The notes under the pieces were generated by a model. It was not told the origin of the DNA and did no database searches. It worked only from the letters and a program-made list of their open reading frames with translations. Both the position numbers and the translations under genes were made by a program. A DNA stretch of 64,000 nucleotides from a virus, in IMG/VR virus record IMGVR_UViG_3300023235_001181. One strand, 5' to 3'. Positions within the stretch are counted from its first letter, which is position 1, and every line of letters starts with the position of its first letter. Positions 44,310-63,923 of this stretch are shown here, piece by piece.

Positions 44310-44720
44310 ACTCCAATCTCCAGGTATGGGTTCTGAGGATCATTCGTGTTGGTGATGGCGATGATGCCGTCCAAATCTCTGAAAATGGTAGCCATCACTT
44401 CGTCGTAGGTGTTCCGGTTGATGATCTGGTCCCTGTGCTTGAGGCACTGACCCTCCGCGAGGAGGATGTCAGGGGTGTACCGCTCCATGGTGGAGGGCCT
44501 CCTGTCCAAGACGAGGAGCAGCCTCTTGTCCTCGTTGTTCGCCAGTTCGCGCCACCGAAGCAGGTACGCTGACCGGACCTGGTACATGGACAGCAACGAG
44601 GTCATTTCGACGTTGAGGTCTGCCCTTGCAGCCTCGGTAGCTGCAAGGGTTTGCATGGCTCCTTCTGACACCCCCTCTTCCGGAGGGGGGTCAATCTCAA
44701 GTAGGAGGTGAAGCCTATCG
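44306..44720 (-). CDS. hypothetical protein
   Basis: ORF to 44821 overlaps Prs gene; true start likely internal. Confidence 0.4.
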
Positions 44721-45701
44721 AGAGCCACCCCAGCCTCGCGGGAGGTGGTGAAGCACGGAGTCCACCAACACCGGAGCGCATCGCATGATGCGGAAGATGC
44801 CGGAGGTGCCTGGCTTGTCAAGGGTGTTCACCATCTTCACGGCGCGCGGGTGGCTGTCAAAGGAGTACACCGCGTCGAGTACGCCGTCGAACATGGCGTG
44901 CGTGTCGGCGGGGCTCTTGGTGTAGACGCCGTGGCTCAGGATCGCGCTGACGCCAATGGCACCCGCGTCCATGTAGCTCTTCGCTCCACCCACGAGGCTG
45001 CTACCGCTCCGGGTCATGTCGTCCACGAGGATCACGTACTTGCCCTTGACGTCGGCGCTGACGTTGGTCACCTCGGTGGTCCCGCCGTCGATGCGTCGCT
45101 TGCCGATGAAGGCAGGGAGCCAGCCACCCATCTCGGAGGCGATGTACTCCACACGCTTCGCACCACCGGCATCAGCGGAGCCAATCACGGCATCAGCGAC
45201 GCCCTGCTCAGCCACGATCTCGCGGATCGCGTCGAGGATGATCGGCTGTCCACGAGAGTGGATCTGGTGGGCTCGGTCTCCGAAGTAGTGGGGGATGCCC
45301 TCTGCATGGAGATCGAGGAACACGATCCGGTTGCCGTTGTAGGCCTCGGGGATGGCGCTGAGCAGCCGGGCGCGCGTCTTGGCAGTCACCACCTCACGCG
45401 TCTTGGGCTTGGCGCGCTCCATGGTGCTGTACCCGAAGTAGGGGATCACGATGGTCAGAGAGCGAGCTCCGTAGGCCACAATCGCGCAGCAAGCGTCGAA
45501 CATCTCCATCGTGTCGTTGTCGTTGATGGTGCCGCCGAGGTACACCACGTCACGGTCACGCACTGAGGTTTCGATGCGCTGGTACCGCTCCCCGTCAGGG
45601 AAGGTCTTGATCAGCACCTCGCCCCGGTCGAAGCAGGGGTCTACGTCAACAAACGTAGGGGCGAGGTACTCGTAGCTTCGGGTAGCAAAGAGAAGAGGCA
45701 C
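44715..45701 (-). CDS. ribose-phosphate pyrophosphokinase (PRPP synthetase) family protein; could be an ADPR-PP-synthetase-type Prs homolog
   Basis: 328 aa; N-domain GEVLIKTFPDGE...RDVVYLGG, DLHAEGI, PRPP loop VILVDDMTRSGSS. Confidence 0.75.
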   Translation of the reverse strand: MPLLFATRSYEYLAPTFVDVDPCFDRGEVLIKTFPDGERYQRIETSVRDRDVVYLGGTINDNDTMEMFDACCAIVAYGARSLTIVIPYFGYSTMERAKPKTREVVTAKTRARLLSAIPEAYNGNRIVFLDLHAEGIPHYFGDRAHQIHSRGQPIILDAIREIVAEQGVADAVIGSADAGGAKRVEYIASEMGGWLPAFIGKRRIDGGTTEVTNVSADVKGKYVILVDDMTRSGSSLVGGAKSYMDAGAIGVSAILSHGVYTKSPADTHAMFDGVLDAVYSFDSHPRAVKMVNTLDKPGTSGIFRIMRCAPVLVDSVLHHLPRGWGGSR

Positions 45702-45714
45702 GTTGGTTCTCCTT

Positions 45715-46902
45715 TTAGAGGACGCTCTCTACGATACGAACGTAGAGGTCATCCAGCTTGTCCATGTCGGGGCTGTAAGGTAGCACGGGAGTGAGCTCGG
45801 GAAGGGGCTCGAGGCCCTTCTTCACCCGCGCAGTCACACGCTGCTTCTCGGTACCGTAGTACGATGTGTAGATGTCACCGAGAGCGGCGTTCTCGCGATC
45901 AGCCCAGTCCACCAACTCGTCGTAGGTCCAGGCACCCTTGCGGATAGCGAGGAGCTCTTCACGGTCGATCCCGCCGCGCCACACATGCACCTTGCCCGTC
46001 GTCAAGATCTCCCGTCCCATGCGGAGCAGGCGAACGAGGTGGGCACCGTGCTTGGTGTCGTAGCCGGAGGCAGCTTCCAGCGCAGCCCGCTTGGGGTTCC
46101 GCTGACGCTTCCAGGTCTCGAAGCTCTTCCAGTTCTTTTGGGCGTCCTTGTACCGCTTCTCACCCTTGAGGGCCTCGAGCAGTCCTTCGTCGATCCCGAT
46201 GGAGCGTGCGGCAGCAATCCACAGTTCATCGTCGGTGGTCACGCCGATGGTGGCGAGGGTCTCAGCGATGTTGTCCTTGGCGCGGATCTTCTCGCTGTCG
46301 GCCATTTCGCCGAAGTCCCACTTCCACTCGTCAAGCTGCTTGTCGATGGCGGCGAGGAGCACGTTGCGCTGATGCTGCGTCACCACTTCCTCACCGAGGC
46401 CAAACTCCTCGCGGGTCGGCTTGTGGGTCGGAGGGTTGAGCAACCAGGCCCGGTGTCCCTTGATGCGCTTGAGCTGCTGGAAGGCGTAGCCGGTGAAGCG
46501 GTGCTTGGCGGCTCCACTCAGGAAGAGGTCCCGGTGTTCGCGGAGCAACTGCCCGGCCCAGTTGTGCATGAGCAGCTCTTCGTCGCGGCAGAAGAGCACG
46601 TCGAGCATTCCGGGGTTGCAGTCGGCGGTCAGCTTCATGAACTTGCCGAGGCCGTACACGACGCCCTCGAGCTTCTCGCGTTCGGCGGCGTCCATCTGCT
46701 CGGCGTCGAGGTACTTGCGGAAGGGTTCCATCTGCCCAGGCTTGTCGCACTGGTCGAAACGCTTGCGGAAGGTCAAGTGGTACGGACGTGGAGGTAGGCA
46801 GACGCCCTTGAGGTCTACGTCCGAAGTGTCGGTGTGGAGCCCGTAAGCTCGGGAACCAGCCACTCCAACGAGGATCGCAGAGTCATGTAGGTCGAAATCC
46901 AT
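45715..46902 (-). CDS. nucleotidyltransferase (Pol-beta superfamily) with C-terminal extension
   Basis: 395 aa; GSRAYGLHTDTSDVDLKGV; second copy of the family in the window. Confidence 0.6.
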   Translation of the reverse strand: MDFDLHDSAILVGVAGSRAYGLHTDTSDVDLKGVCLPPRPYHLTFRKRFDQCDKPGQMEPFRKYLDAEQMDAAEREKLEGVVYGLGKFMKLTADCNPGMLDVLFCRDEELLMHNWAGQLLREHRDLFLSGAAKHRFTGYAFQQLKRIKGHRAWLLNPPTHKPTREEFGLGEEVVTQHQRNVLLAAIDKQLDEWKWDFGEMADSEKIRAKDNIAETLATIGVTTDDELWIAAARSIGIDEGLLEALKGEKRYKDAQKNWKSFETWKRQRNPKRAALEAASGYDTKHGAHLVRLLRMGREILTTGKVHVWRGGIDREELLAIRKGAWTYDELVDWADRENAALGDIYTSYYGTEKQRVTARVKKGLEPLPELTPVLPYSPDMDKLDDLYVRIVESVL

Positions 46903-48735: not shown

Positions 48736-48792
48736 AGTGTCCTCCAGAGTCCTTCCAACACTTTTCGTCCTTGGAAGTTAGAGGGCTTCCAA

Positions 48793-52544: not shown

Positions 52545-54038
52545 TCACCTCATTGTCGGGAACAGAATCACGTCCCGAATTGATTGTGTGTCTGTCAACA
52601 GCATCACGAGCCGGTCGATGCCAATCCCCTCACCGGAGGTGGGAGGCATACCGAAGCTCAACGCGTCGATGTAGTCCTGGTCGAAGTACATGGCTTCATC
52701 GTCCCCGCGTGCCTTGGCAGCAGCCTGGGCCTGGAAACGAGCAGCCTGCTCAACGGGGTCGTTCAGCTCTTGGAAGCCGTTGGCGATTTCCATACCGGCG
52801 ATGTAGAGCTCGAAGCGGTCTGCTACCTCTGGGTCATCAGCAGATGCTCGAGAGAGTGGGCTGATGTCCAAGGGGAATCCGGTCACGAAGGTCGGCTGGA
52901 TCAGCTTGTCCTCAACGTACTCGTCGAAGTAGAGCTGGAACCACCGCCCGATGGTCCGGGGGAGCTTGGTAGCGTCCGGGTGGTCCTGTACCCACCTCGA
53001 GCGCATCTCGGGCATGGAGAAGGGGTCGTTGATGCCCGCGTGCTCCATGATCAGGTCGGCCATGCTCACGCGCCTGAAGGTGGTCAGGTCAAGCTCGTGC
53101 CCGTCGTAGGTGCAGACGTCCATCGGAAGGAACTCGCCAACCCGGCAGGCTTCCTCGTAGATGACGCGGTTGTTGGCACCACGGATGATGGCTTCGGTGG
53201 TGTCCATCAGGTCAGCCGGTGTGGCGTGGGCCTGATAGAACTCCAGCATGGTGAACTCGGGGTTGTGCGTCCCGTCCACTCCCTCGTTCCGGAAGTTGCG
53301 GTTCAGCTCGAACACTCGCTCGTAGCCACCCACGATGAGCCTCTTGAGGTAGAGCTCAGGGGCGATGCGTAGGTAGAGGTCCTTGTCGAGAGCGTTGTGG
53401 TGCGTCACGAATGGTCGTGCGTTCGCACCGCCTGGGAGCGTCTGCATCATCGGCGTCTCCACCTCCATGAACCGATGGTCTTCAAAGTACCTCCGGATGT
53501 AGGATACGATGGTGCTGCGCGCACGGAACCGGTCGCGAGTGTCTTGGCTCACGATGAGGTCGAGGTACCGCTGACGGCGCTGCTGCTCCACGTCGGTGAA
53601 CCCCGCGTGCTTGTCCGGCAGGCTCTTGATGCACTTGGAGTAGAGCGCAAGGCTGTCCACCTTGAGGCTCAGGTCACCGCGTCGGGTACGGATGAGCTGC
53701 GCTTCTGCGTACACCCAGTCGCCGATGTCCAACTTCTTCCACACGTCGGCGTACATGACGGGGCCGATGCCCGCACGGCGCACGAACAACTGCATCCGGC
53801 TTTCGCCATCCTCGATGAAGGCGAAGCCAATCTTGCCCATCTCGTTCTTCTGGACGATGCGTCCGGCCACACGGTAGACGGTGGTCTGCGCCTCCAACTC
53901 CTCCGCGCTCAGATCAGCACCGATGCGCAAGATCTCGAGCAGCCGGTGGCTGAGGTCCTTGGAGACGGGATAGGGATCTACGCCTTCAGCGCGTAGTGCG
54001 TCCAACTTTTCCAGCCGTGCTGGTTCAAATTCGCTCAC
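52545..54038 (-). CDS. lysS: lysyl-tRNA synthetase, class II
   Basis: 497 aa; motif 2 FRNEG..HNPEFTMLEFY, motif 3 GEGIGIDRLVMLLTDTQSIRDVILFPTMR, N-terminal OB anticodon-binding domain. Confidence 0.85.
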   Translation of the reverse strand: MSEFEPARLEKLDALRAEGVDPYPVSKDLSHRLLEILRIGADLSAEELEAQTTVYRVAGRIVQKNEMGKIGFAFIEDGESRMQLFVRRAGIGPVMYADVWKKLDIGDWVYAEAQLIRTRRGDLSLKVDSLALYSKCIKSLPDKHAGFTDVEQQRRQRYLDLIVSQDTRDRFRARSTIVSYIRRYFEDHRFMEVETPMMQTLPGGANARPFVTHHNALDKDLYLRIAPELYLKRLIVGGYERVFELNRNFRNEGVDGTHNPEFTMLEFYQAHATPADLMDTTEAIIRGANNRVIYEEACRVGEFLPMDVCTYDGHELDLTTFRRVSMADLIMEHAGINDPFSMPEMRSRWVQDHPDATKLPRTIGRWFQLYFDEYVEDKLIQPTFVTGFPLDISPLSRASADDPEVADRFELYIAGMEIANGFQELNDPVEQAARFQAQAAAKARGDDEAMYFDQDYIDALSFGMPPTSGEGIGIDRLVMLLTDTQSIRDVILFPTMR

Positions 54039-54164: not shown

Positions 54165-55736
54165 TTAGGCTGCCGCAGCCACCGCTTCCGCGCGGGCTCG
54201 GGTACACGTCTCGATCAAGCTCAGGGTGATGCCGTCCACGGCGGGTCGGTGTTCGAAGCCGTCACGTCGCGCCGAGTCACCGGGTCCGTACACACGCCAG
54301 CCCTTCGGGAGGTTGCCGTACTGACACACCATCGTAGCGGGTCCGTGTGAGGGGTGAGCAGCGTTCTCGCGCACGGCGAGTACCGGGATGCCGGGGAGGC
54401 TCTGCTTCCCGCTCCAACCCTCTTCCAGCTCATCGCCGAACTTCATGGTCGGTCCGTACTTGGACGTCCAGGCGAGCTTGTAAACCATGCTCACCAAGCC
54501 ACGTCGGTAGCCGGTGGGCTCCGGGCGGTCGATGAAGTAGCCGCCCGCGCCAAACAGCGTCACCTCTTCGGGGTAGTCAACCTCGATGCGGAGCGCCTCG
54601 TACCGTGCAACGTCCTTGTCGTCGATGCCGTCTTCAAATACCCACGGGCGGGGTCGGATGCCGCGTGCCTTGATCTCGCTCACGATGTAGCGGAACTGCT
54701 CCTCAAGGGAGCCGCTGTCGGGTCGCATCCCGTCGTTCCGGTCCGGAAACTCTTCCATGAGCTTCAGGGCGGTCGGGATGCCCACCTTCATCGTGTCGTT
54801 GGTGTCGAGCAGCATGATCACGAGGGGCATTGCGGCGATGTGTGCGCGGAAGGCGCGTTCGTCGTTGCCACCGTGGCGCATGATGCCCTCATGGCCCAGC
54901 GTGCCAACTGCCTTGATGTCCAGCACGTAGGCACCGTAGGCGTTGGAGGTCAGCGTGAAGCCGAGGTCCTTCAGAGCCTTGAGCGCGATGAGGTGCTGCT
55001 CCATGCAGGTTGCGGCGCGGAGGCCAACCTCGAAGATGCGGTTCGGGCTCACGCCGGAGGCCAGCATCTTGATGCCCTGCAACTGCACCGCGTTGTAGTA
55101 GCTGAGCTCGTCCACGGTGATGCCGTTTTCGATGTCCCGCAGCTCCTGTCGGAAGTCGGCATCGCCGAAGTCCCTGCCCTTGTGGGCACCGAGGATCGCC
55201 TCCATGGTGAGCTCCTTCTGGCGCTCACAGGTCACGGTGCGGATGGTCTCGAGGAAGGCGGGCATCGTGTCGCCCTCGCGGGCCTTGATGTAGGCGGTCG
55301 CTACCTGCATCTGGTAGCTGAAGCGTCCCGAAACCAACGGCTCGAGCCAGCTTGCGATGGCCTGAGGAGCTCGCACGGTAGCCACGGGCTCACGGGGAGC
55401 AGCGTACTCGCCAAAGGGTGTCGCGTAGAGCACCTCAAGGCTGGAGCCGTCCACGGAGTCCCACAGCATCTTCTCGGTCACGTTGAAGCCGAAGTGCTGC
55501 AGTAGCGCGCACTCTTCCTTCACGGTCGCTGAGGTGGGGTTGGGGATCATCTCGCGGATCGCCGTCTCGGGATCCACAGGCATGAACATGAGCCCGCCGC
55601 GTCGGAAGCTCAGATAGAACACTTCCTTCTCTTCGGGGCGTCCGCCAGCCATCATGGGCCACTTGTAGCCGTCCGATCCGAGGGTGCTTTCGCGCCAGGA
55701 TCGCTTGCCTGCAAGTAGTTGTCGTAGAATGCTCAT
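54165..55736 (-). CDS. nadV: nicotinamide phosphoribosyltransferase family protein (NadV/Nampt-like; alternatively a Namat-type transferase)
   Basis: 523 aa; GSDGYKWPM (cf. TDSYKVTH), GIRPDSGSLEE (cf. RPDSGNP), FGAGGYF (cf. FGSGGGL). Confidence 0.75.
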   Translation of the reverse strand: MSILRQLLAGKRSWRESTLGSDGYKWPMMAGGRPEEKEVFYLSFRRGGLMFMPVDPETAIREMIPNPTSATVKEECALLQHFGFNVTEKMLWDSVDGSSLEVLYATPFGEYAAPREPVATVRAPQAIASWLEPLVSGRFSYQMQVATAYIKAREGDTMPAFLETIRTVTCERQKELTMEAILGAHKGRDFGDADFRQELRDIENGITVDELSYYNAVQLQGIKMLASGVSPNRIFEVGLRAATCMEQHLIALKALKDLGFTLTSNAYGAYVLDIKAVGTLGHEGIMRHGGNDERAFRAHIAAMPLVIMLLDTNDTMKVGIPTALKLMEEFPDRNDGMRPDSGSLEEQFRYIVSEIKARGIRPRPWVFEDGIDDKDVARYEALRIEVDYPEEVTLFGAGGYFIDRPEPTGYRRGLVSMVYKLAWTSKYGPTMKFGDELEEGWSGKQSLPGIPVLAVRENAAHPSHGPATMVCQYGNLPKGWRVYGPGDSARRDGFEHRPAVDGITLSLIETCTRARAEAVAAAA

Positions 55737-55764: not shown

Positions 55765-55794
55765 AACGACGGATACCCCGAGGAAGTTAGAGAG
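55765..55794 (-). promoter_or_regulatory. bipartite promoter-like motif variant (CTCTCTAACT-N16-CGTTGA) upstream of nadV-like gene
   Basis: minus-sense gttCTCTCTAACTtcctcggggtatccgtCGTTGAtggag...gaggaattATG. Confidence 0.4.
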
Positions 55795-55812: not shown

Positions 55813-56733
55813 TCAGCGGCGGGTACCAGTACGCACCATCAGGTTGAGGGTCTTCCCGCTCACTTTGAAGGTGGCTGTCTGTCCCCATGCGAACTCCAGC
55901 CGGTCAGATTCGATGCCGTCCCCGAAGATGACTCCACCTTCCTGCATACGCGACGTCACCTTGAGAGGAGCATCCGGCTCCACATACCCTTGCTGGATTG
56001 AAACGCCTGAGAAGGGGCTGTCCCAAGCCTCTCTCACCTGAAAGATCAGCACTCCCTCTTCGGGATCTGGGAAGGGCAGAGGGTTCCGGCGCTGTGATGC
56101 GACGGAGCTTGCCCAACCCGTACAACCCGTACCGGAGCTGATGATCATACCAGAGGAGCTCTGGTACTCGGTGTGCTGCTCGTAGGCGATGTCGTACTTG
56201 GCGCTCTGATGGGAGTGGTGTCCGCAGAACAGCTCGTTGAGGGCGATGATCTTCCGTCCCTCCTCTTGCGTTTCGTCGTCCTTGATCTCCACCTCCACCA
56301 TTGAGCGGCGCTGAAGCTTGGCGGTGTTGTTCTTGAGGTAGCCGTAGAGCAAGGGGATCTCCCGCTCACGCCACACCATCATCTTCGCCTTGTAGGAGGT
56401 GTCGGGGTTGATCCCGGCGACAGTCTGCCCGTCCAGGTACTTGGCTACGTTCGGGACCAAGCCGTCCTGCCCCACAGCAACGATGATGTCACCGGGCTGA
56501 AAGACAAACCTGTCCAGATCGCTCCGGAGGCAGCTCGTCTTTCGCCAGGTGTGTGGTACATCGCGGAGGGCACGGGCAGCAACTTTCAAGGTGACGGCGT
56601 GCATCCGTTCCACCTTGTCCATCGACTGCCCCATCAGCTCAAGCCTGAACCTCGCCATCTGAACGGTCCCGTGCTCTACGAGCAGAGATTCGTACTCGGT
56701 GGTTCTGCGAACCACTACTACTCGAGGTTCCAC
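55813..56733 (-). CDS. NAD kinase-like protein
   Basis: 306 aa; GDIIVAVGQDGLV (GGDG-type), IALNELF (NE/D motif), SGMIISSGTGCTGWASS (cf. [20 protein letters not shown]). Confidence 0.55.
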   Translation of the reverse strand: MEPRVVVVRRTTEYESLLVEHGTVQMARFRLELMGQSMDKVERMHAVTLKVAARALRDVPHTWRKTSCLRSDLDRFVFQPGDIIVAVGQDGLVPNVAKYLDGQTVAGINPDTSYKAKMMVWREREIPLLYGYLKNNTAKLQRRSMVEVEIKDDETQEEGRKIIALNELFCGHHSHQSAKYDIAYEQHTEYQSSSGMIISSGTGCTGWASSVASQRRNPLPFPDPEEGVLIFQVREAWDSPFSGVSIQQGYVEPDAPLKVTSRMQEGGVIFGDGIESDRLEFAWGQTATFKVSGKTLNLMVRTGTRR

Positions 56734-56742
56734 GGCTGCCTC

Positions 56743-57861
56743 CTACTTGCTGAGCTGCTGCACAGCTTCCAGCAGTCCGCCACCAATGGTCACGGAGCTG
56801 AGGTTGCTGAGGCCTGCGGGGATGCCCTGGATGGCCAGTGCGAGTGCGGCTTCACCCTTCTCCTCGAAGGCTGCGAGCTGAGCCTCAACCTCGGCCACGC
56901 GGGCTTCACCGAGCGCCTCTTCCTGAGCGACGGTCTGAGCGTCCACGGAGATCCGAATGGCGAGTGCCTGCTCGTCGGAAGCAGCCTTGTTCTCGAGGCG
57001 CTGGGCCTCGGCGTTGGCGGCGTCCTCGAGCTGACGTGCGGAGGTGAGCTCCTGAGCCCTGAGGTTGGCCTCAGTCTTCTTGCGCCCCTGCTCCAACTCG
57101 GCGTCCGTGCGGATGCTCACAACAGCAGCGGAGCTGGCTTCCGAGGCCTCACTGTTCACGCGGTCCTGAGCGATCAGGGCCTCGCGCTGCTTGGCGAGCA
57201 GAAGCTTGTTGTTCAGTGCCGCTTCCTCGATGGCACGCTCCTTCTCAGTAGCGTTGGCACGCCGGTCGAAGGTGGCCTCGTCAGCTTCCTGCTTGAGGCG
57301 CTCGTTGGTCTTGGTCTGGAGGGCCTGAGCAACGTCCCGGTTGGGCTTGATGCTGGTCACGCTTGCGGCGAACACCTCGATGCCGATGTCCAGCGCCTGG
57401 AGGGCGGCAAGCACAACGTCGGAGATGGCCTTGGGGTCATCCACAAGCAGCGGCTCGAGCTCCTGCTGGGAGATGTAGCTCCACGCCGCCTGCTGCGCCG
57501 TGTTGGTCAGCACCGTGGCGATGTCCGTGGAAGGGTCGCCCAGCGGAGTGCCGGTGTCGGTGTCCACAGCGAAGTTGAAGCGGGAGGCGATGTTGAGCGC
57601 CGCTTCAACTCCTACGCGCCACTGGCCCGTCGCGCTGACGGTGACGTCCTGGAAGTCCTTGGTGCGGCAGTTGAAGGTCAGCGGGACGGTCTGGTCCACG
57701 ACGGGTACCTCAGAGAGGCTCGTGCCCTTGGTCCAGAACCACAGCCAGAAGCTGAGGCCGGTGCCGCTCTTGGTGACCTTGCCACCTGCAGATGCGATCA
57801 GAAAAGTGTGAGCCTCGCCACGCACGTTGCGTAGAGGCCCGAAGGTTGAGATGGTTGCCAT
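56743..57861 (-). CDS. SPFH/band-7 (flotillin-like) protein
   Basis: 372 aa; N-terminal SPFH-like region then ~200-aa A/E/Q-rich coiled coil with EA repeats. Confidence 0.65.
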   Translation of the reverse strand: MATISTFGPLRNVRGEAHTFLIASAGGKVTKSGTGLSFWLWFWTKGTSLSEVPVVDQTVPLTFNCRTKDFQDVTVSATGQWRVGVEAALNIASRFNFAVDTDTGTPLGDPSTDIATVLTNTAQQAAWSYISQQELEPLLVDDPKAISDVVLAALQALDIGIEVFAASVTSIKPNRDVAQALQTKTNERLKQEADEATFDRRANATEKERAIEEAALNNKLLLAKQREALIAQDRVNSEASEASSAAVVSIRTDAELEQGRKKTEANLRAQELTSARQLEDAANAEAQRLENKAASDEQALAIRISVDAQTVAQEEALGEARVAEVEAQLAAFEEKGEAALALAIQGIPAGLSNLSSVTIGGGLLEAVQQLSK

Positions 57862-57958
57862 CTTGTGTCTCCGTGATTGGGCTTGTCGCCCTTGGGTTCA
57901 TACCCTCCTACTGTTCACGGTTGAAGGCGGGATAGGTTCCCGCCGACGCACATACTTT

Positions 57959-58177
57959 TCAAACGCCCTTGATGTCCCGTAGTCGCTTGAGCTCAAACGG
58001 GCTCGCGTGTTCGGTCCAATGGGTCCACGGGTCCACACCCAGTTCCTTGCCGACGTACTCGATGTTCTCGAGCTCCTTGCCCAGATCCGTTTCCCCGACG
58101 CCATGTGGGTCGTCGGAGAAGAGGTCGAGGTAGAGCTCGAACAGCTCGGCAACGAATTCCTGGGTGCGTGGTGTCAC
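57959..58177 (-). CDS. small hypothetical protein
   Basis: 72 aa. Confidence 0.35.
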   Translation of the reverse strand: MTPRTQEFVAELFELYLDLFSDDPHGVGETDLGKELENIEYVGKELGVDPWTHWTEHASPFELKRLRDIKGV

Positions 58178-58818
58178 TCGGCAGTCTCCCGCGCGGCGAG
58201 CATTCCCTTGCCGTTCCAGAAGGTCACGGCAGCACGCAGGGCAGCTTCAAACTGCACGGCGTCCATGTTGGTGCTCGAGCCGCCGTCGAGGCCGAAGTGG
58301 TTCGCCATGAGCGTACCCGGCGTCATCGGCTGGTCGCCTTCGGTCAGCTTGCCGAGAAGTGTCACCACCTCCCACTCGCTGCCGTTCAGCTCGTCCAGAC
58401 GCTCCGTGTCCTCTTCGAGAACCGAGCGGTTGTAGAGCACCACATCCACCCACATCGCCGCAGAAGGGATGCGCGGGCTTCCCAGCTTGTTGATGCGAGC
58501 CACCTTGGAGCTCTTGCGGGGCTTCTCACCCTCGCGCCGAGCCTTGTACTCCACCACGAAGCGGTCGTCCGGGGTGATGTCCACCACGGGGCAGGTGAAG
58601 AAGGTCTCGTCGAACAGCGCGAACACGTTCAGCGGTACGATGATCACACCGTCCCGGTAGCCCTCACGCTGAGCCGCCCATTCGAGCTGCACTGCCTCCA
58701 CAAGGATGTCCCACCGCTGGGTGCCCGCGTCGTCCAAGCACAGGAACTCCGTGAAAGAGGTTCCGGTGCGGTGGTGGTTCTTGCAGAAGCCACTGACGGT
58801 GATATCTTGTTTCGGCAT
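58174..58818 (-). CDS. hypothetical protein
   Basis: likely ATG MPKQDIT (ORF to 58860). Confidence 0.45.
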   Translation of the reverse strand: MPKQDITVSGFCKNHHRTGTSFTEFLCLDDAGTQRWDILVEAVQLEWAAQREGYRDGVIIVPLNVFALFDETFFTCPVVDITPDDRFVVEYKARREGEKPRKSSKVARINKLGSPRIPSAAMWVDVVLYNRSVLEEDTERLDELNGSEWEVVTLLGKLTEGDQPMTPGTLMANHFGLDGGSSTNMDAVQFEAALRAAVTFWNGKGMLAARETAE

Positions 58819-58858
58819 TTGGGTCCGTTCCTTGGGTCGTTGTCCGTAGTGCTCCCCC

Positions 58859-58887
58859 AACGCATCACGCGGGGGAGCACTCAGAGG
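58859..58887 (-). promoter_or_regulatory. bipartite promoter-like motif (CCTCTGAGT-N14-TGCGTTG) overlapping a 10-bp-stem hairpin GTGCTCCCCC/GGGGGAGCAC
   Basis: minus-sense gagaaaaCCTCTGAGTgctcccccgcgtgaTGCGTTGggggagcac; lies between clpP stop and next gene. Confidence 0.45.
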
Positions 58888-58893
58888 TTTTCT

Positions 58894-59583
58894 CTACTCG
58901 TCGGCCTCGGCTGCAGCGGCAGCAGCTTCCCGCGCGGTCTTGTTGGCGCGGTCGCAGCCTTCGATCTTGTCGATGAGCCCGTACTCCAGAGCCTCCTCGG
59001 CGGTCATCCAGTTGTCGAGCTGCATGTCGGCTTCGAGCTTCTCGAAGCTCTGGCCGCAGTTCTCGGCCAGCAGCCGGGTCAGCTTCTGGTGGAGGCGGTC
59101 TGTGTGCGCCATCGCCGCCTTCATGTCCTTGTACTTGCCCTGGTTGCCCGAGCTCAGCTCGTGGATCATGATCTCGCTGTTGGGGAGCGCCGAGCGGTTG
59201 CCCGCCGAGCCCGCACTGAGCAGGAAGCTACCCATGGAAGCCGCCATACCCACGACGGTCGTGTGGACGGGGCTGTCGATGAGCTGCATGGTGTCGTAGA
59301 GCGCGAGGCCGTCGATCACCGAGCCACCGGGGCTGTTGATGTACATCATGATGGGCTTGCCGGGAGCGTCCGCCTCGAGGAAGAGGAGCTGCCCAATGGC
59401 GATGCGCATCGAAACGCTGTCCACCTGGGTGCCGACGTAGATGATGCGGTCCCGCATGAGCCGGGAGAACAGGTCGAAACTCCGCTCCATTCGGCCATCG
59501 GATTCCACCACGACGGGGATGTTGTAGTTGGCAGGCAGTCCGCCGAGGGAGGCGAGTACTTCGAGCTGTTCACGAGTGGGCAT
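58894..59583 (-). CDS. clpP: ATP-dependent Clp protease proteolytic subunit ClpP (S14)
   Basis: YINSPGGSV, GMAASMGSFLL (Ser), MIHEL (His) catalytic motifs; likely ATG MPTREQL preceded by ACGGAGCACCAA; ORF track extends to TTG at 59631. Confidence 0.8.
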   Translation of the reverse strand: MPTREQLEVLASLGGLPANYNIPVVVESDGRMERSFDLFSRLMRDRIIYVGTQVDSVSMRIAIGQLLFLEADAPGKPIMMYINSPGGSVIDGLALYDTMQLIDSPVHTTVVGMAASMGSFLLSAGSAGNRSALPNSEIMIHELSSGNQGKYKDMKAAMAHTDRLHQKLTRLLAENCGQSFEKLEADMQLDNWMTAEEALEYGLIDKIEGCDRANKTAREAAAAAAEADE

Positions 59584-59637
59584 TTGGTGCTCCGTTGAGG
59601 TCATTTTCACAGGACGGTGATCGGGTTTCAATAGTGC

Positions 59638-59668
59638 AACGAGTTCAACCGGCGTCGAACTCAGAGCG
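59638..59668 (-). promoter_or_regulatory. bipartite promoter-like motif (CGCTCTGAGT-N16-TCGTTG) with GAGTTC/GAACTC inverted repeat
   Basis: minus-sense agaaacgCTCTGAGTtcgacgccggttgaacTCGTTGcac...ACGGAGcaccaaATG. Confidence 0.45.
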
Positions 59669-59676: not shown

Positions 59677-60402
59677 TCAGCCCGTCGCCCGAGCCTTGTC
59701 GCCCAACACGCTGTCGGCCGTCACGAAGGTTGCGCCCGCATCACCGAGGGTGCGGAGGCTGAAGTTCATGCCACCCTCGTCACCGCTCACGGGAGGCACA
59801 TCGAGCGCCACACAGGCGTCGGTCACCACTTCCACGGTGTAGCCACGCTCGAGCAGTCCGGTCACGAAGCCGTCAACGCAGAAGCCGCCGAGGCAGTAGC
59901 CAAACACGCGGAAGATCACGTTGTCCTTGCCGCCCATCTCTTCCACGAGGTGTGCGATGTACGCCTCAGCGATGGGGTTGCTGAAGGCGCTGTACACCTC
60001 CTTCTCGAAGTAGAGGCCGACGCCCGCAAGAGCCTCGGTCGTGAACTCCGTGGAGCCGTACACGCGGGGGCCGTTCCCAGCCTTGTCCTCGCCGATGCAG
60101 CCGTCGCCACCCCAGCTCATGGGGAGGAAGCGGAAGCGGGGAGGCAGCGTGCCGTCGAGCTTCAGCCAGTCCCAGGTGCCCTTGACGGCGTGGGTGGGGA
60201 AGATGCCACCGTTGTCGATGAACTCCCAAGCGTCGTAGCTGTGGCTGTCCACGCAGCCAATGAGGGGCTCGTTGGTGGCAAGGGCGCGAGCCACAAGGCC
60301 ACGAATGCGGTCGTTGACGGTGTCGTCAGCGACGGAGAGGTTGCCGTCCTTGTGTGCGAAGGCGTTGGCGGTGTCGACGTCGACGTTGATGTAGCGGGCC
60401 AT
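59677..60402 (-). CDS. nicotinamidase/isochorismatase-family hydrolase (PncA-like)
   Basis: 241 aa; N-terminal INVDVDTANAF, KEVYSAFSN, VFGYCLGGFCVDGFVTGLLERGYTVEVVTDACVA (catalytic Cys region). Confidence 0.6.
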   Translation of the reverse strand: MARYINVDVDTANAFAHKDGNLSVADDTVNDRIRGLVARALATNEPLIGCVDSHSYDAWEFIDNGGIFPTHAVKGTWDWLKLDGTLPPRFRFLPMSWGGDGCIGEDKAGNGPRVYGSTEFTTEALAGVGLYFEKEVYSAFSNPIAEAYIAHLVEEMGGKDNVIFRVFGYCLGGFCVDGFVTGLLERGYTVEVVTDACVALDVPPVSGDEGGMNFSLRTLGDAGATFVTADSVLGDKARATG

Positions 60403-60404
60403 GA

Positions 60405-61064
60405 TCAGGTCTCCTTGGAGAAGCGGTAGGTTGTTCGTCGGCCTTTGCTCTGCTCAGTCACCGGTTCGATGACGCCCAGCGCAGTAGCCTTCTTTCTCAA
60501 GTTCGAGCTGTCTTCCGCCTTGCCCGTGATGTGTCCCATCAGGTCGCGGTAGTCGCTCATGTTGAAGTTCATGTAGAGGAAGCCCGCAACCACGTCCGGG
60601 TCGTAGCGGTGCTTCTTGAGGAATTCCTGAGCGAACTCAAGGATGCCCCGATGGTCGAATGCAAGGTCCATGTTCAGCGCAGCGGCGAGTGGCGTCCACC
60701 CGTCGTGTCCCCTGAATACGTGGGAGATCGGGCAGATGTGCGCCACGCTGAGCACCTTGTCGCGGGTGTCCCGGTCGAAGCCGTCAAAGACGTGCATCTG
60801 TACCGGTTGAACCTGCGCGTGTGCCTCGGGCACGTAGCGTCGTAGGGAGCGGCGTACCGCATCAAAGAGGAGTTCGTTGGGCTTCACAAACGCGCCGGGG
60901 AGCGCCAACTGGCCCATCGCCGGAGGGTTGCGCCGCCTGATGAGCTTCACGCGGAGCTCAGGGTCTACCACTACAACGTCCACCGCCAGAGGCGGGTTCT
61001 TGTACTGCGAACGGTCGTAGTCCGCAAAGTACTCTTCGTCGGTGATGTGGGTTTCGTCGGGCAC
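60405..61064 (-). CDS. NrtR-like protein: degenerate Nudix domain + C-terminal winged-HTH
   Basis: 219 aa; Nudix-like GQLALPGAFVKPNELLFDAVRRSLRRYV with degenerate REx2EE; C-terminal NLRKKATALGVIEPV...GRRTTYRF matches NrtR wHTH pattern; 3-nt gap to PncA-like gene. Confidence 0.5.
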   Translation of the reverse strand: MPDETHITDEEYFADYDRSQYKNPPLAVDVVVVDPELRVKLIRRRNPPAMGQLALPGAFVKPNELLFDAVRRSLRRYVPEAHAQVQPVQMHVFDGFDRDTRDKVLSVAHICPISHVFRGHDGWTPLAAALNMDLAFDHRGILEFAQEFLKKHRYDPDVVAGFLYMNFNMSDYRDLMGHITGKAEDSSNLRKKATALGVIEPVTEQSKGRRTTYRFSKET

Positions 61065-61154
61065 GCTGGTTATTCCTACTTGTTACTTGGTACGTTTTAC
61101 CTTGTTGTCAGTATAACGCCAGCGATGTGCAGAAAGTTAGACTTTCATTTCGAA

Positions 61155-61541: not shown

Positions 61542-61848
61542 ATTTCGGGTCCTGCCACCAGTCCTGGCTTTCCAAATCAAGCATCTCGTAGAGGCGGTCT
61601 GGAAGTTCCGACAGCCCTTCCTCCCTGAACCACTCCCCACGCCACCGAATGCGGTAGCTGCGAAGTCGCCCATGGATGTAGAACTCGGTGGGTCCCTCTT
61701 TGGGGACGAGCAGGATGACCTTCAGCGTGTAGGGGTTCCCGGTCTGAAGCTCGTTGAGGCGGCGCTCAATGTCCTTGGTGCGTCCGATCTTCACCACCCC
61801 GGTCACCGCCGCTTGGATGATGTACAGGTCCTCCCCAAACGATTTCAC
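61534..61848 (-). CDS. T5orf172/GIY-YIG-like domain protein
   Basis: 104 aa; LYIIQAAVTGVVKIGRTKDIERRLNELQTGNP matches T5orf172 (MUG113) signature. Confidence 0.5.
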   Translation of the reverse strand: MKSFGEDLYIIQAAVTGVVKIGRTKDIERRLNELQTGNPYTLKVILLVPKEGPTEFYIHGRLRSYRIRWRGEWFREEGLSELPDRLYEMLDLESQDWWQDPKYL

Positions 61849-62801
61849 AGGAAGAACGGGCTCTCCTCTACTACCGGCTGAGCAGGCAGGAGGAAAGAGA
61901 CGTAGCGGGGTGAGGGGTCGAACGGATTGAACTTGCGCTTGTAGGTCGCGTTGAAGCCATGCTTGCCACCTTCACCGATGGCTACTCCATCAGCTACGTG
62001 GGTCACACCCTGTCGCGCCATGTCGGCAAAGCAGTCGTGTTGAGCCCATGCACTCAGGTTCGGTATGCCTCTGTCACATGCCATGCCTGTCGTGTGGCCC
62101 CAGCACGTTTCTGTCATGGGTTGGTTGAGGTGGATCACGAGCGGCTCTCCGTCAATGCGGTAGAGCCGGTTGATGCCGTCCTCGTAGTGCCGGTCGAGAA
62201 TGTACTCGTATTTCCGGTAGTTGATGTTCATGCCGCCGCGCTCCTTGGACTCCTTGACCCAACGCTTCATCACCGCGCGGGCCTCCTCCAGGTTTCCGGA
62301 GTCGATGGGCTCAGCCGTGTAGCCGGTGGTGGTCCGCTTGAAGGCGTTGATGTCAGCTCGGAGGCGACGCCACTTCTTTCCAGAGAGTGTGTCGATCCCT
62401 GCAATGTCGTAGGTGTACTCGCCGTACTCACTGAATTTCCCAGGAGTGAGCTTGACGCCCTCTGCCATGAAGGCCGCAGCGATATCAGCGGCCCAGGAGG
62501 CTGGGACGTTCTCAATCTTGAGGTTCTTGTCCGTGCTTCCCTTGTACGCCTGCCACCACGCAACCAACTCGGGAATGACTGCGTCCTTGTCACCGTAGGC
62601 TCGGTAGACACGGTAGTATTTCCCGTACTTCACACTGAAGAGGAGAAGCGTGTCCTCGCTGACGACCTTGTTGCCCTTGAACACTCCGTGGTTGATGAAC
62701 CCGTAAGTGTAGGGGAGGCAGTCGGTCATTGTAGCTACACCGTCCATACGTGAACGGATGAAGGGGATGTCTGCCGTGGTCAGCGGGGTAGTTTCACTCA
62801 T
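61845..62801 (-). CDS. hypothetical protein (318 aa), paralog of 63519-63923
   Basis: shared C-terminal module ETCWGHTTGMACDRG...QGVTHVADGVAIGEGGKHGFNATYKRKFNPF vs DTCWAHTLGIALGTE...RGVTHIADGQRVANFKNKDKFRPI. Confidence 0.5.
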   Translation of the reverse strand: MSETTPLTTADIPFIRSRMDGVATMTDCLPYTYGFINHGVFKGNKVVSEDTLLLFSVKYGKYYRVYRAYGDKDAVIPELVAWWQAYKGSTDKNLKIENVPASWAADIAAAFMAEGVKLTPGKFSEYGEYTYDIAGIDTLSGKKWRRLRADINAFKRTTTGYTAEPIDSGNLEEARAVMKRWVKESKERGGMNINYRKYEYILDRHYEDGINRLYRIDGEPLVIHLNQPMTETCWGHTTGMACDRGIPNLSAWAQHDCFADMARQGVTHVADGVAIGEGGKHGFNATYKRKFNPFDPSPRYVSFLLPAQPVVEESPFFL

Positions 62802-63537
62802 CGAAGAGGCTCATGTATTCGTGGTCATCACCACCCAAGATGTCCGGGTGGATCAGGCGCTCGGGAACGTCGGGAGCTTCTGCGCCGCCTGAGGTCTCCC
62901 GGTGAAGGTAGAAGGGCCGGTTGTACTTGAGAACCGTCGTAGGGAGGAAGTCCCTCGGGCCTGTGTAGTAGAAACCGTCCACGCCGGTAGATGCAGCGAT
63001 GGCTGCTTCCATGCGCGGGTCAAGAGTGGCAACCGGAATGCCCTGGCTCTTGAACTTGAGCGTGATGACTGCGTAGCCCTTCTCGGCCTTGGCGTTCAAG
63101 AGGTCGAACAGCATCCCAACGTCTTCGGGTCCGGTGGTGGTGAACAGCACGCCGCAAGAGAGGACGAAGTCCCACGTCGGGGCCTTGTTCAGCTCTTCCC
63201 AGTAGTTCCCGATGCGGAAGTCGTACTCCGGCACTCGGGTTCGGGCGTCCAGCACGTTGGCAGGGACGATGTCGAACCCTTGGTACTTCAGCTCGGGCCT
63301 CTGGTCGCGTAGCATCTCAGCCAGCGTGCCCGTGCCGCACCCACACTCGAGAATGGAGGTGGCGTTGGCTGGGATCAGGTCGATGAGGCCCTGCCAATGA
63401 GCAACCATGTCCTCGGGAGAGTACTTGTACCACTTGAAGCGGGTGGTGTCGTCAGGGTCCTCGTACTTCCCGGCTGACCGAGTGTAGGAGTCCCGCCAAC
63501 GGAGGATCGTTTCATCTGCTACTGGAATGGAAGACAT
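62794..63537 (-). CDS. class I SAM-dependent methyltransferase
   Basis: 247 aa; motif I ILECGCGTGTL, motif post-I QGFDIVP. Confidence 0.7.
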   Translation of the reverse strand: MSSIPVADETILRWRDSYTRSAGKYEDPDDTTRFKWYKYSPEDMVAHWQGLIDLIPANATSILECGCGTGTLAEMLRDQRPELKYQGFDIVPANVLDARTRVPEYDFRIGNYWEELNKAPTWDFVLSCGVLFTTTGPEDVGMLFDLLNAKAEKGYAVITLKFKSQGIPVATLDPRMEAAIAASTGVDGFYYTGPRDFLPTTVLKYNRPFYLHRETSGGAEAPDVPERLIHPDILGGDDHEYMSLFDE

Positions 63538-63923
63538 TCATCATCCTCATACTTGCCGTCAATGGCCAGCCTGACACCGGACACGGCACCCTCGATAGGG
63601 CGGAATTTGTCCTTGTTCTTGAAGTTGGCGACACGCTGTCCATCTGCGATGTGCGTGACGCCGCGTTGCTGAAGAAGGCAGAACGCCTCCCAGCTTGACC
63701 ACTCCCACAGGCCTCGGGGCCTGAACAGCGTGCCGTCTTCCTGCTCGGTGCCCAAAGCAATCCCAAGAGTGTGAGCCCAGCACGTGTCGGTGATCTTGTG
63801 CATGATCTGAAGGGCTACGGGCTCTCCCGCCACCTTGTAGAGCAGATGCATACAATCGTCGGTCCTGAAGTTGTCGAAGGCGTAGGTGTACTGCTTGAAG
63901 TTGAGGTTGAAGACGTTCCTCAC
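63519..63923 (-). CDS. hypothetical protein, shorter paralog of 61845-62801
   Basis: 134 aa; conserved TCWxHT..G and GVTHxADG motifs. Confidence 0.45.
   Translation of the reverse strand: MRNVFNLNFKQYTYAFDNFRTDDCMHLLYKVAGEPVALQIMHKITDTCWAHTLGIALGTEQEDGTLFRPRGLWEWSSWEAFCLLQQRGVTHIADGQRVANFKNKDKFRPIEGAVSGVRLAIDGKYEDDECLPFQ

Follow-up and report, generated by a model that had tools for sequence, protein, structure and literature searches.

A candidate autoregulated NrtR-nicotinamidase operon within the NAD-salvage module of a giant phage-like genome

Depleting NAD is one of the main ways in which bacteria fight phages, and a viral genome that carries an NrtR-like regulator beside a nicotinamidase-like gene raises the question of what such a regulator senses and which genes it controls. 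This pair is found at positions 59677–61064 of a 64-kb stretch of the IMG/VR record IMGVR_UViG_3300023235_001181 (the window), where an earlier note had described a Nudix/winged-helix protein of the NrtR type next to an isochorismatase-family protein. Results from Pfam, PDB, NCBIfam and fold comparisons bear this description out. Both ORFs are on the minus strand: the nrtR-like gene (60405–61064, 219 aa, GTG start) encodes an inactive Nudix domain followed by a C-terminal winged helix-turn-helix (wHTH), and the pncA-like gene (59677–60402, 241 aa) encodes a predicted divergent nicotinamidase. The two genes are separated by 2 nt (TGA-TC-ATG), not by the 3 nt given previously, and an AAGGAG Shine-Dalgarno sequence for the pncA-like gene sits within the final codons of the nrtR-like gene; the second gene is probably translationally coupled to the first. 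Directly 3' of the pncA-like stop is a hairpin lacking a U-tract, GAGTTCGAC-GCCG-GTTGAACTC (59641–59662, minus strand), which possibly marks the end of a bicistronic unit; a consensus terminator scan called neither this hairpin nor any other minus-strand terminator-like site across 54–62 kb. Neither the pair nor its neighbours matched the PADLOC defence models. The analysis described below extends the earlier reading, as the pair has its own candidate operator and promoter-like element and belongs to a conserved NAD-salvage module.

The family of the 219-aa protein was examined at the level of sequence and predicted structure. The protein matches Pfam NUDIX above the gathering score (2.9e-5, 24.5 bits; GA 21.1), and its single-sequence match to NrtR_WHD (PF21906) is sub-threshold at 19.8 bits (GA 27); seven of the nine clade members have a recorded PF21906 domain. 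The top PDB sequence match is the Shewanella oneidensis NrtR (SoNrtR) structure 3gz5 (2.9e-15), and a profile of the clade aligns with residues 3–220 of the 240 in that chain (E=1.2e-27). Among NCBIfam models, that of the ADPR-responsive repressor NtrR scores best (1.9e-17), and all NCBIfam matches of the protein fall far short of the equivalog cut-offs. The AF2 model of the protein (pLDDT 89.3, pTM 0.86) gives full-length Foldseek matches to AraR (5bs6) and SoNrtR (3gz5/3gz6) over ~212 columns with a TM of ~0.70 (0.69 for the DNA complex 3gz6), and also matches Nudix domains, including 3gz8. Its C-terminal domain is made up of helices 169–180 and 186–195 and a beta wing, so that the wHTH previously read from sequence pattern is recovered by structure prediction. 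The alignment shows conservation of the LAFDH linker, of the S-N-L-R-K-K recognition helix and of the wing. The bacterial NrtR of S. oneidensis (3GZ5/3GZ6/3GZ8; Rodionov et al. 2008) shares the two-domain architecture, the impaired Nudix signature, the LAFDH linker, the N-x-R-K-K recognition helix and most ADP-ribose contacts with the window protein. In contrast, identity to characterised or neighbouring bacterial NrtRs is 24–30%, and none of the three catalytic Glu residues remains. The Nudix fold and the NrtR/AraR-type wHTH, together with a computationally detected palindromic operator and an association with NAD-metabolism genes, support the assignment of 60405–61064(-) to the NrtR family of Nudix+wHTH regulators.

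The Nudix box of the regulator is degenerate and reads A58-x5-E64-x7-R72-S-L-R-R-Y-V-P; Ser73, Arg76 and Tyr77 therefore occupy the positions of the three catalytic Glu residues (REUxEE expected), and they do so in all clade members. The replacement of REUxEExG by R72-S-L-R-R-Y-V-P corresponds to the impaired Nudix signature of the NrtR family, in which this domain is a non-catalytic sensor. Such a signature is typical of NrtR and not obligatory, because some true NrtRs keep the box. The residues through which SoNrtR contacts ADP-ribose (ADPR) were taken from the AraR paper and are Y10, F15, R41, N43, R98 and K76 (PMC4666351). Five of these six contacts are kept in the nrtR-like protein, where Y10, F15, R41, N43 and R98 align with Y16, Y21, R44, N46 and R101; only K76 is altered (Tyr77, with Arg76 adjacent). 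ADP-ribose sensing by this protein is plausible because of the conservation of these five contacts. Effectors differ within the NrtR family, as AraR responds to arabinose and NdnR to NAD (PMC4666351). A regulator that senses another nucleotide (NAD, NaAD, cyclic ADPR signals or ADPR-PP), or that acts as a ligand-independent temporal autorepressor, must be weighed. The Nudix box is more degenerate here than in most NrtRs, K76 is not conserved, and N46 is present in just 4 of 7 clade members, all of which would suit such a regulator. However, the adenine-binding Tyr and the aromatic residue of the N-terminal arm are kept, as are the three phosphate/ribose-binding Arg residues, and the same positions are replaced in the arabinose sensor AraR (alignment; PMC4666351). 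A different ligand, or none, is accordingly considered unlikely.

A candidate operator for the regulator is located upstream of its own gene. The promoter-like element TAACTTTC with a 16-nt spacer and TATACT (61110–61139, minus strand) precedes the nrtR-like gene. The AACTTTC-N14-18-TANNNT pattern has a single occurrence in the window (0.04 expected), TAACTT(C/T)C occurs four times, in each case on the minus strand and in an intergenic region, and the CAACTTTC block is kept upstream of the nrtR-like genes of the relatives L010, L014, L015 and L022; a sigma-70 consensus scan called no promoter at the regulator gene. The candidate operator itself (61085–61105) is a 21-bp imperfect palindrome, ACAAGGTA-AAACG-TACCAAGT on the minus strand, with a GT-N7-AC core; the operator-bearing sequence as a duplex is ACAAGGTAAAACGTACCAAGT. 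It begins 4 nt past the -10-like hexamer, and 20 nt separate its end from the GTG start codon. This architecture agrees with that of published NrtR boxes, which are palindromes of ~21 bp built around a GT-N7-AC core and lying upstream of the NAD genes under control, and NrtR repressor sites have been reported in the same position, between the -10 element and the start codon (PMC2330246). The 21-bp operator of bacterial NrtR, likewise placed between promoter and start codon, thus has the same layout as the site found here.

The site matches the perfect palindrome of L015 at 14 of 16 positions and is the only site scoring at least 13 in 64 kb, while 100 Markov shuffles gave no site at 14 or above and 0.04 per shuffle at 13 or above. 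The GGTA-N5-TACC core occurs three times in the window (0.29 expected); the other two occurrences, at 2400 and 14685, were rejected as operators, being inside ORFs and without the outer arms. The same palindrome is present at the same position in several relatives (16/16 in L015 and L022, 12/16 in L016, and with a 6-nt spacer in L023), and the sites of L010 and L014 are degenerate or different, that of L010 being a degenerate copy. Across these relatives the arms are conserved and the spacer is not; this conservation is partly shared ancestry and does not constitute independent evidence. Based on its position, architecture and conservation, 61085–61105 is the predicted operator of the nrtR-like protein, to which the regulator would bind.

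The earlier note had further proposed that the phage protein could titrate host NrtR operators or act on host genes, and the operator analysis lends this no support. The sole operator-like site in 64 kb precedes the regulator's own gene. The palindrome upstream of the homologous bacterial operon has different arms, TTAGGGT versus ACTTGGT here (ACTTGGTA/TACCAAGT in the window operator), and the recognition-helix region of the phage-clade regulator has an indel relative to bacterial NrtRs. TAGGGT-N7-ACCCTA, the host-type palindrome, has no copy in the window, and action on host boxes was therefore dropped. No second operator was detected at the pncB-like gene, at the Prs gene or elsewhere in the 64-kb window, and the pncB-like gene, Prs and the rest thus appear to be outside the regulon. 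The regulation of pncA alone would be an odd way of controlling a pathway, which counts against the explanation favoured below.

The function of the neighbouring protein was likewise probed by homology and fold. The 241-aa protein matches Pfam Isochorismatase in its C-terminal half only (4.9e-8) and has >120 homologues, many of which are named nicotinamidase/pyrazinamidase by JGI. None of the residues of the Asp10/Lys134/Cys175 triad or of the Asp52/His54/His71 metal site varies across 56 homologues. The best fold matches of its AF2 model (pLDDT 95) are the nicotinamidases 3o91, 6a8l, 1ilw (TMt 0.84) and 2wt9. The nicotinamidase-like identity proposed previously is thus upheld by fold, triad and metal site. 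The solved PncA enzymes (P. horikoshii 1ILW, S. pneumoniae 3O91, B. subtilis 6A8L) have this fold, triad and Asp/His/His site in common with the window protein; they differ in that identity is 15–18%, in that the window protein contains a ~60-residue insertion between His71 and Lys134, and in that it carries HAV where PncA has HCV, after the third metal ligand. The protein scores 19.5 bits against the PncA equivalog model NF008623 (cut-off 174) and represents a divergent subfamily, and for this reason it is called nicotinamidase-like and not an equivalog. The low score, the insertion and the presence of other superfamily amidases among the fold matches would be expected if the protein were another cysteine amidohydrolase, acting on a modified base, carbamoylsarcosine or maleamate. 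This is quite improbable, as the metal site is of the type typical of nicotinamidases and is invariant, the 16 best fold matches are all nicotinamidases, and the gene always adjoins NrtR near pncB-like and NadE genes, in bacteria and in phage-like contigs. The fold model, triad and metal site support a divergent nicotinamidase-like enzyme.

Further genes of NAD metabolism surround the pair, with pncB-like, NadK-like and Prs-like genes within 16 kb. The pncB-like gene (54165–55736, minus strand) encodes a divergent nicotinate phosphoribosyltransferase (TIGR01513 1e-24, under cut-off) that matches nicotinate PRTases only (PDB NAPRTases 2f7f, 1.3e-9, and 4yub), is 49–53% identical to its relatives and 34–35% identical to a ~500-aa gene product preceding pncA-nrtR in bacterial operons, and has its own TAACTTCC promoter-like element at 55782–55789. 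A weak NAD-kinase-like gene (55813–56733, minus strand, 306 aa) matches NCBIfam NAD kinase models (9e-5) and PDB NADK2 (1.3e-5) and possesses GQDG and GTGCTGW motifs. The Prs-like ribose-phosphate diphosphokinase (44715–45701, minus strand; TIGR01251 147 bits, above the cut-off of 113; PDB Prs 1.8e-26) is encoded directly after NadE in L010; judged by its sequence it may supply PRPP to PncB, and an Adps-type activity is also possible. The second isochorismatase-family gene listed earlier (39819–40550, minus strand) is real (Pfam 4.4e-15) and a conserved module member, but its nucleophilic Cys is replaced by Val. Both catalytic-looking Nudix genes are likewise genuine, with intact boxes: 24473–24964 (minus strand; Pfam 1e-20, REAAEETG) and 34925–35503 (minus strand; Pfam 1.5e-16, RELKEETG and an FDH motif), the latter a stand-alone domain of the NrtR/NadM type and a probable ADP-ribose pyrophosphatase. 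A tblastn search with the NadE of relatives gave no match in the window, the flanks past both its ends likewise showed no NadE, and the scanned ORFs, about two thirds of those called in the window, include no NadD. The window comes from a genome that measures 257 kb or more, and a complete Preiss-Handler set (PncA, PncB, NadD, NadE) was not found within the window.

Phage NAD+ reconstitution has been described for NARP1 (Adps and Namat), NARP2 (NampT and Nmnat) and NARP3 (PnuC and NadR), and jumbo-phage NAD-synthesis clusters with pncB, nadD and nadE, those of the 'NAD-jumbo phages', have already been reported (PMC11662467). The window resembles these systems in that virus-encoded enzymes would rebuild NAD from breakdown products. 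In contrast to the NARPs, which proceed via NMN or ADPR-PP, the route here would consist of nicotinamidase and nicotinate PRTase (deamidated Preiss-Handler). An assignment of the Prs-like and PRTase genes to NARP1 was rejected: the PRTase matches nicotinate PRTases only, the genes are 8.5 kb apart, and Prs is above its subfamily cut-off. Scans with Pfam, PHROGs or NCBIfam, which covered about two thirds of the ORFs called in the window, gave no NARP2 or NARP3 genes.

Relatives of the module bear on the nature of the genome. An identical PncA-like protein is carried by a 257.5-kb contig. A word-indexed homologue search for the regulator gave 3 matches only, and exhaustive representative and clade-profile searches found its relatives. 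The order nrtR-like, pncA-like, pncB-like, NadE, second isochorismatase is found in L010, L014, L015 and one further contig; the L016 locus, which ends ~4 kb past the pair, contains nrtR-like, pncA-like and a ClpP-like gene. These relatives are on phage-like contigs of 92–478 kb with like gene content, and an alignment-based IMG/VR scan with the PncA-like protein gave 4 loci, with relatives on viral genomes of 119–497 kb. The nrtR-like proteins form a separate clade that has so far been found only on giant phage-like contigs. It could be argued that the window is bacterial chromosome or megaplasmid with an ordinary NrtR-PncA operon, since capsid, portal and terminase genes were not found in the window and the ~17 kb of flanks showed no structural gene, an INPHARED near-identity search of the region gave no match, and single-protein IMG/VR scans with both proteins were empty. 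A tblastn search of the PncA-like protein against phages also gave no match, and no tRNA genes were found. The best phage matches, to 'Acinetobacter phage MD-2021a', were discarded, as this entry is a bacterial chromosome (fepC, AraC, prs-nadV-nrtR). Against a bacterial origin, the window genes form near-unidirectional, tightly packed arrays of mostly ORFans, with phage-typical content (T5orf172, NinI-like phosphatase, DNMK, RNA-repair genes, aminoacyl-tRNA synthetase and ClpP-like protease), a 737-aa protein of the region matches the jumbo phages XacN1 and D479 only, and the same module and PncA-like relatives occur on the large contigs and viral genomes given above. A non-viral window is thus very unlikely, and gene content and relatives, rather than structural genes in the window, make it likely that the genome is that of a phage.

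Taken together, these results point to a phage nrtR-pncA operon that would form a self-contained unit in a giant phage-like genome, held down by a repressor that controls its own gene and is relieved by ADPR; this reading is favoured and is considered reasonably probable. The unit would comprise four parts: a promoter, a 21-bp operator placed at the start of transcription or shortly past it, the gene for an NrtR-family repressor whose Nudix domain has lost catalysis and kept an ADP-ribose pocket, and a translationally coupled nicotinamidase gene. First, a repressor dimer would occupy the operator and keep transcription of nrtR-pncA at a low level. Next, ADP-ribose produced when NAD is cleaved, by NADase immune effectors for instance, would dislodge the repressor. 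Finally, nicotinamidase would rise and nicotinamide would enter a virus-encoded Preiss-Handler route through PncA, then PncB-like enzyme with Prs-made PRPP, then host NadD, and then NadE, which is encoded in relatives and not in the window. There is precedent for the '#nrtR-pncA' gene order in Roseiflexus and Clostridium acetobutylicum (PMC2330246).

A captured bacterial pncB-nadE-pncA-nrtR operon, maintained as a passenger for NAD homeostasis during long jumbo-phage infection and unconnected to anti-phage NADases, is a less probable yet serious alternative. Bacterial Nannocystaceae/Myxococcota contigs carry pncB-like-(nadE)-pncA-like-nrtR, the phage PncA-like protein is 57% identical to a bacterial one, and the jumbo-phage clusters noted above are known. 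However, the regulator is ~30% identical to those bacterial NrtRs, compared with 50–57% for its neighbour, the genes stand in another order, with that of the regulator leading, and the arms of the operator are not the same; the unit therefore appears to be an evolved viral one and not a recent passive copy. This alternative and the favoured autoregulated operon differ in the source of the signal only. A stronger form of the favoured reading, in which the inactivated-Nudix NrtR is a giant-phage immune sensor that detects ADP-ribose released by TIR, SIR2 or similar NADases and derepresses a nicotinamidase that feeds nicotinamide, the second product of this cleavage, into Preiss-Handler, as an inducible fourth NAD+ reconstitution, is tentative and rather doubtful.

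Two further phages, Bacillus phage G and LR756504.1, carry unrecognised NrtR genes, as identified by sequence, beside NAD genes. The gp273 protein of phage G, annotated 'MutT/NUDIX hydrolase', matches NUDIX (61 bits) and NrtR_WHD (37 bits) above cut-off, and downstream of it lie isochorismatase gp275, NAPRTase gp277, NadD gp281 and NadE gp283. In the huge phage LR756504.1 (636 kb), an NrtR-like gene lies close to those of NadM-Nudix and NadV. These NrtRs have an intact Nudix box and are 25–32% identical to the window protein, whose clade is more derived; they were probably acquired independently, from hosts of the Firmicutes type or others. No report of a phage NrtR was found in the literature searched, and the phage NAD+ reconstitution literature searched describes no phage-encoded transcriptional regulator of these genes. 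On the immune-sensor reading, the occurrence of NrtR beside NAD-synthesis genes in three or more unrelated lineages of jumbo phages (this clade, phage G and LR756504.1) would indicate that such a sensor arose more than once. The three phage NAD-rebuilding pathways described in 2024–2026 were described as enzymes; with an ADP-ribose-responsive repressor of their own, phages would have this counter-measure under regulation and may sense host immune NADase activity directly. A defined 21-bp operator, a 219-aa protein and the cultured Bacillus phage G, with its unannotated NrtR beside a full pncA-pncB-nadD-nadE cluster, offer an experimental handle. If the unit is homeostatic only, it would still be a clean case of a virus capturing a metabolic operon together with its regulator and re-evolving the operator.

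The interval 59677-61064 is occupied by two open reading frames, both on the minus strand: an nrtR-like gene (60405-61064; 219 aa, GTG start), whose product has the MPD... N-terminus common to its homologues in the family alignment, and a pncA-like gene (59677-60402; 241 aa). The pair of genes reported in the earlier note is real and the family assignments of both members hold; their separation, put there at 3 nt, is 2 nt (AAG GAG ACC TGA TC ATG). Since the gap is this short and the Shine-Dalgarno sequence of the pncA-like gene is located inside the final codons of the nrtR-like gene, the two appear to be laid out as a translationally coupled pair.

As a single sequence, the regulator matches Pfam NUDIX (2.9e-5) and NrtR_WHD (19.8 bits, under the gathering score of 27), and its top NCBIfam model is 'ADPR responsive transcriptional repressor NtrR' (1.9e-17, far under the equivalog cut-off). 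The top PDB matches by sequence are Shewanella oneidensis NrtR (SoNrtR; 3gz5, 2.9e-15) and Bacteroides AraR (5bs6). Searching 1.8 billion representatives exhaustively returned only 4 close relatives, beyond which thousands of proteins of 210-250 aa align end to end. When the 7 closest relatives are combined into a profile, SoNrtR is matched at 1.2e-27 across chain residues 3-220 (of 240), a stretch that takes in the DNA-binding domain. The AF2 model (pLDDT 89.3, pTM 0.86, built on 16 sequences) has a three-helix bundle and beta wing at the C-terminus, and its top Foldseek ranks are AraR, SoNrtR (apo and DNA-bound) and 2fml (TM about 0.70, about 212 columns). The profile, the model and the fold matches hold up the earlier reading of a degenerate Nudix domain with a C-terminal winged-HTH of NrtR type; given the Foldseek matches to AraR and SoNrtR, structure prediction does return the wHTH whose absence had been named as grounds for abandoning that reading. 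The Nudix box reads A58-x5-E64-x7-R72-S-L-R-R-Y-V-P in the family alignment, with all three catalytic Glu positions substituted in every clade member, unlike the NrtRs adjoining pncA in Nannocystaceae contigs, which retain RELxEETG.

In SoNrtR with ADP-ribose bound, Tyr10 and Phe15 are in contact with the adenine, Arg41, Asn43 and Lys76 with the phosphates, and Arg98 with both ribose and phosphate, as described in the AraR structure paper (PMC4666351). The PDB chain numbering of SoNrtR is the native numbering plus 3. Tyr10, Phe15, Arg41, Asn43 and Arg98 align with Tyr16, Tyr21, Arg44, Asn46 and Arg101 of the regulator, and Lys76 aligns with Tyr77, next to Arg76, in the box register of the family alignment. 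Within the clade, Tyr16, Arg44, Arg98, Arg101 and His138 of the regulator do not vary, position 21 is aromatic in all members, and Asn46 is retained in 4 of 7. In the arabinose sensor AraR, the ADP-ribose-contact positions are occupied by different residues (PMC4666351). The retention of most of the contact residues in this clade and their replacement in AraR favor a nucleotide of ADP-ribose type as the ligand of the regulator.

Single-sequence evidence for the pncA-like protein as a nicotinamidase is weak, with 33.7 bits to Pfam Isochorismatase (C-terminal half only), E=0.07 to a PDB nicotinamidase and 19.5 bits to NCBIfam PncA (cut-off 174). The protein has more than 120 homologues (36-73% identity), many of them named nicotinamidase/pyrazinamidase by JGI, and both the triad (Asp10, Lys134, Cys175) and the metal site (Asp52, His54, His71) are invariant in the family alignment (n=56). 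An insertion of ~60 residues lies between His71 and Lys134. All 16 of the top PDB fold matches to the AF2 model (pLDDT 95, pTM 0.92) are nicotinamidases (S. pneumoniae, B. subtilis, S. mutans, Leishmania, P. horikoshii), with a TMt of 0.84 and an rmsd of 2.8 Å to 1ilw; A. baumannii 2wt9 stands at rank 20. The PncA/isochorismatase-family protein originally proposed for this locus is borne out by the family alignment, the triad and metal site, and the fold matches, and is called here a divergent nicotinamidase-like enzyme on the basis of sequence and model.

The 90-nt spacer 5' of the nrtR-like gene is AT-rich. In L015, a related phage-like locus, a perfect palindrome (ACTTGGTA-ACAAA-TACCAAGT; 16/16) is located 18 nt ahead of the start codon. 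When this palindrome was used as the consensus to scan the window, a single site reached 14/16 (61085-61105) and all others scored at most 12; 100 Markov shuffles gave 0 sites of at least 14 and 0.04 per shuffle of at least 13. The core GGTA-N5-TACC occurs 3 times in the window against 0.29 expected, the two further copies sitting within ORFs without the outer arms. The operator-like palindrome has the same position in relatives as in the window: it is also perfect in L022 (16/16; regulator 60% identical), reaches 12/16 in L016, has identical arms with a 6-nt spacer in L023 and is a degenerate copy in L010, and the L014 region failed to align. Across relatives the arms are kept and the 5-nt spacer is variable, the footprint expected for a dimeric binding site, here a candidate one. 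The site at 61085-61105 fits the description of published NrtR boxes, which span 21 bp, are palindromic with a GT-N7-AC core and are placed over or just past the promoter (PMC2330246).

Located 5' of the candidate operator is TAACTTTC, followed by 16 nt and then TATACT. This first block is conserved among relatives, and the CAACTTTC block is kept in L010, L014, L015 and L022. The motif (c)TCTAACTT(C/T)C, with TT(A/G)nAn ~15 nt later, has four window copies on the minus strand (21667-21674, 48773-48780, 55782-55789 and 61132-61139), all intergenic and 5' of minus-strand genes, the copy at 55782-55789 standing ahead of the pncB-like gene. This recurring motif probably marks a class of promoters in this genome, and a factor encoded by the virus may recognize it. 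Hairpins lie immediately 3' of the pncA-like stop (59641-59662, 9-bp stem) and of the clpP-like stop (58848-58881, perfect 11-bp stem); both have CTCTGAGT ahead of them and no U-tract, and could serve as unusual terminators or unusual sites of RNA processing. With a promoter-like block and an operator-like site upstream and a hairpin after the pncA-like stop, the simplest transcription unit would be promoter, operator, nrtR-like, pncA-like. Elsewhere in the window, 31629-33380 gives a weak sigma-factor PHROG match.

The NAD module of the window, all on the minus strand, further contains a divergent nicotinate phosphoribosyltransferase (pncB-like, 54165-55736), a weak NAD-kinase-like gene (55813-56733), Prs (44715-45701), a second isochorismatase (39819-40550) and a stand-alone Nudix domain of NrtR type (34925-35503); NadE was not found in the window by tblastn. 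The second isochorismatase is present as the earlier note had it, but without the Cys nucleophile, with Val at the catalytic position (THIVV vs TNCCV). No other gene of the module is as well conserved (59-74% identity to relatives), and its product may be a genuine Cys-less enzyme of isochorismatase type or may act in binding. The Nudix protein, previously described as catalytic-looking, has an intact RELKEETG box, carries the FGFDH motif of NrtR/NadM-type ADP-ribose pyrophosphatases and shares 37-41% identity with bacterial NrtR Nudix domains, nearer than the NrtR-like protein of the window. The Prs-like protein may make PRPP, or it may be a NARP1-type ADPR-pyrophosphate synthetase (Adps), for which the published discriminators are loss of the C-terminal alpha11-alpha12 region and a remodelled PP loop. 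The interval between the pncA-like and pncB-like genes (55813-59631, minus strand) encodes a ClpP-like protease, DUF3228, a 72-aa ORF, an SPFH/Band-7 protein and the NAD-kinase-like protein; in relatives it holds nothing but small ORFs. A Band_7 gene also comes directly after the NrtR homologue of L007, a bacterial locus.

A full-length lysyl-tRNA synthetase (614 bits) is found in the same genome as two lysyl-phosphatidylglycerol synthase C-terminal-domain paralogues, in a block that also holds a PALP enzyme and a methyltransferase (52545-54038, 61845-62801 and 63519-63923, minus strand, plus L001 5734-9220). The block is kept in L010 and L016 and hints at virus-directed aminoacylation of lipid or another acceptor. 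Further metabolic and repair genes at 5440-6987, 43080-44051 and 45715-46902 (all minus strand) include a DFP (phosphopantothenate-cysteine ligase-like) and class II aldolase fusion, a polynucleotide kinase/phosphatase and an RlaP RNA-repair nucleotidyltransferase.

The gene arrays of the window are dense, near-unidirectional and for the most part ORFans, and include T5orf172, a NinI-like phosphatase, RNA-repair genes, LysRS and the ClpP-like protease; DNMK and a PG_binding protein are encoded in the flank. For one large ORF the sole matches are the jumbo phages XacN1 and D479, identical proteins are present on metagenomic contigs of up to 257 kb, and IMG/VR genomes between 119 and 497 kb in size carry PncA-like relatives, one such genome having pncB-like and NrtR genes as well. 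Because capsid, portal and terminase genes were not seen in the window or flanks, viral origin of the contig is likely rather than proven.

In related contigs (92 kb, 478 kb and shorter), the gene order is nrtR-like, pncA-like, a few small ORFs, pncB-like, NadE, (Prs) and the second isochorismatase; in L016, nrtR-like, pncA-like and ClpP-like genes are followed by the locus end. Bacterial contigs, one a Nannocystaceae MAG, have the order pncB-like-(nadE)-pncA-like-nrtR. The phage PncA-like protein is 50-57% identical to its bacterial-operon counterparts, whereas the regulator is about 30% identical to the NrtRs of the same operons. The palindrome of the bacterial operon L008 also differs (TTTAGGGT-TACAGTG-ACCCTTAA, again with a GT-N7-AC core) and is absent from the window. 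Given these identities and the different palindrome, the viral unit looks as if it either derives from a bacterial salvage operon through rearrangement and re-tuning or came from a separate regulator capture.

Bacterial NrtR-pncA operons are classical (PMC2330246), and phage NAD rebuilding is known from NARP1, NARP2, NARP3 and the 'NAD-jumbo phages' with pncB-nadD-nadE clusters (PMC11662467). The literature searched on phage NAD rebuilding makes no mention of a phage-encoded NrtR. In Bacillus phage G (NC_023719.1, 200123-207372), gp273 is annotated 'MutT/NUDIX hydrolase' and scores 37 bits to NrtR_WHD, above the Pfam cut-off. It leads a cluster of isochorismatase gp275, NAPRTase gp277, NadD gp281 and NadE gp283, the pncA-pncB-nadD-nadE order being that of the Clostridium acetobutylicum nrtR regulon. 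On that score gp273 is an NrtR-family regulator, apparently overlooked in the annotation of a cultured phage. The 636-kb huge phage LR756504.1 (6659-13632) encodes a ClpP-like protein, an NrtR-like protein whose Nudix box is intact, a NadM-Nudix fusion and a NadV-like protein within 7 kb, placing the NrtR-like gene next to a NARP2-type pathway. Both phage proteins are 25-32% identical to that of the window and, unlike it, have intact Nudix boxes, suggesting that NrtR has been captured by phages repeatedly. NrtR genes are already present in public phage genomes.

Most likely, the nrtR-like gene encodes an autoregulated NrtR-type repressor that would control a phage nicotinamidase, with ADP-ribose the probable inducer of the unit; the regulon appears to be confined to one operon. 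A more novel and less likely reading is that the regulator serves as a sensor of immune NADase activity. Paired with a catalytically inactive ADPR sensor, an active ADPR hydrolase, the predicted role of the stand-alone Nudix protein, would determine the level of the signal.
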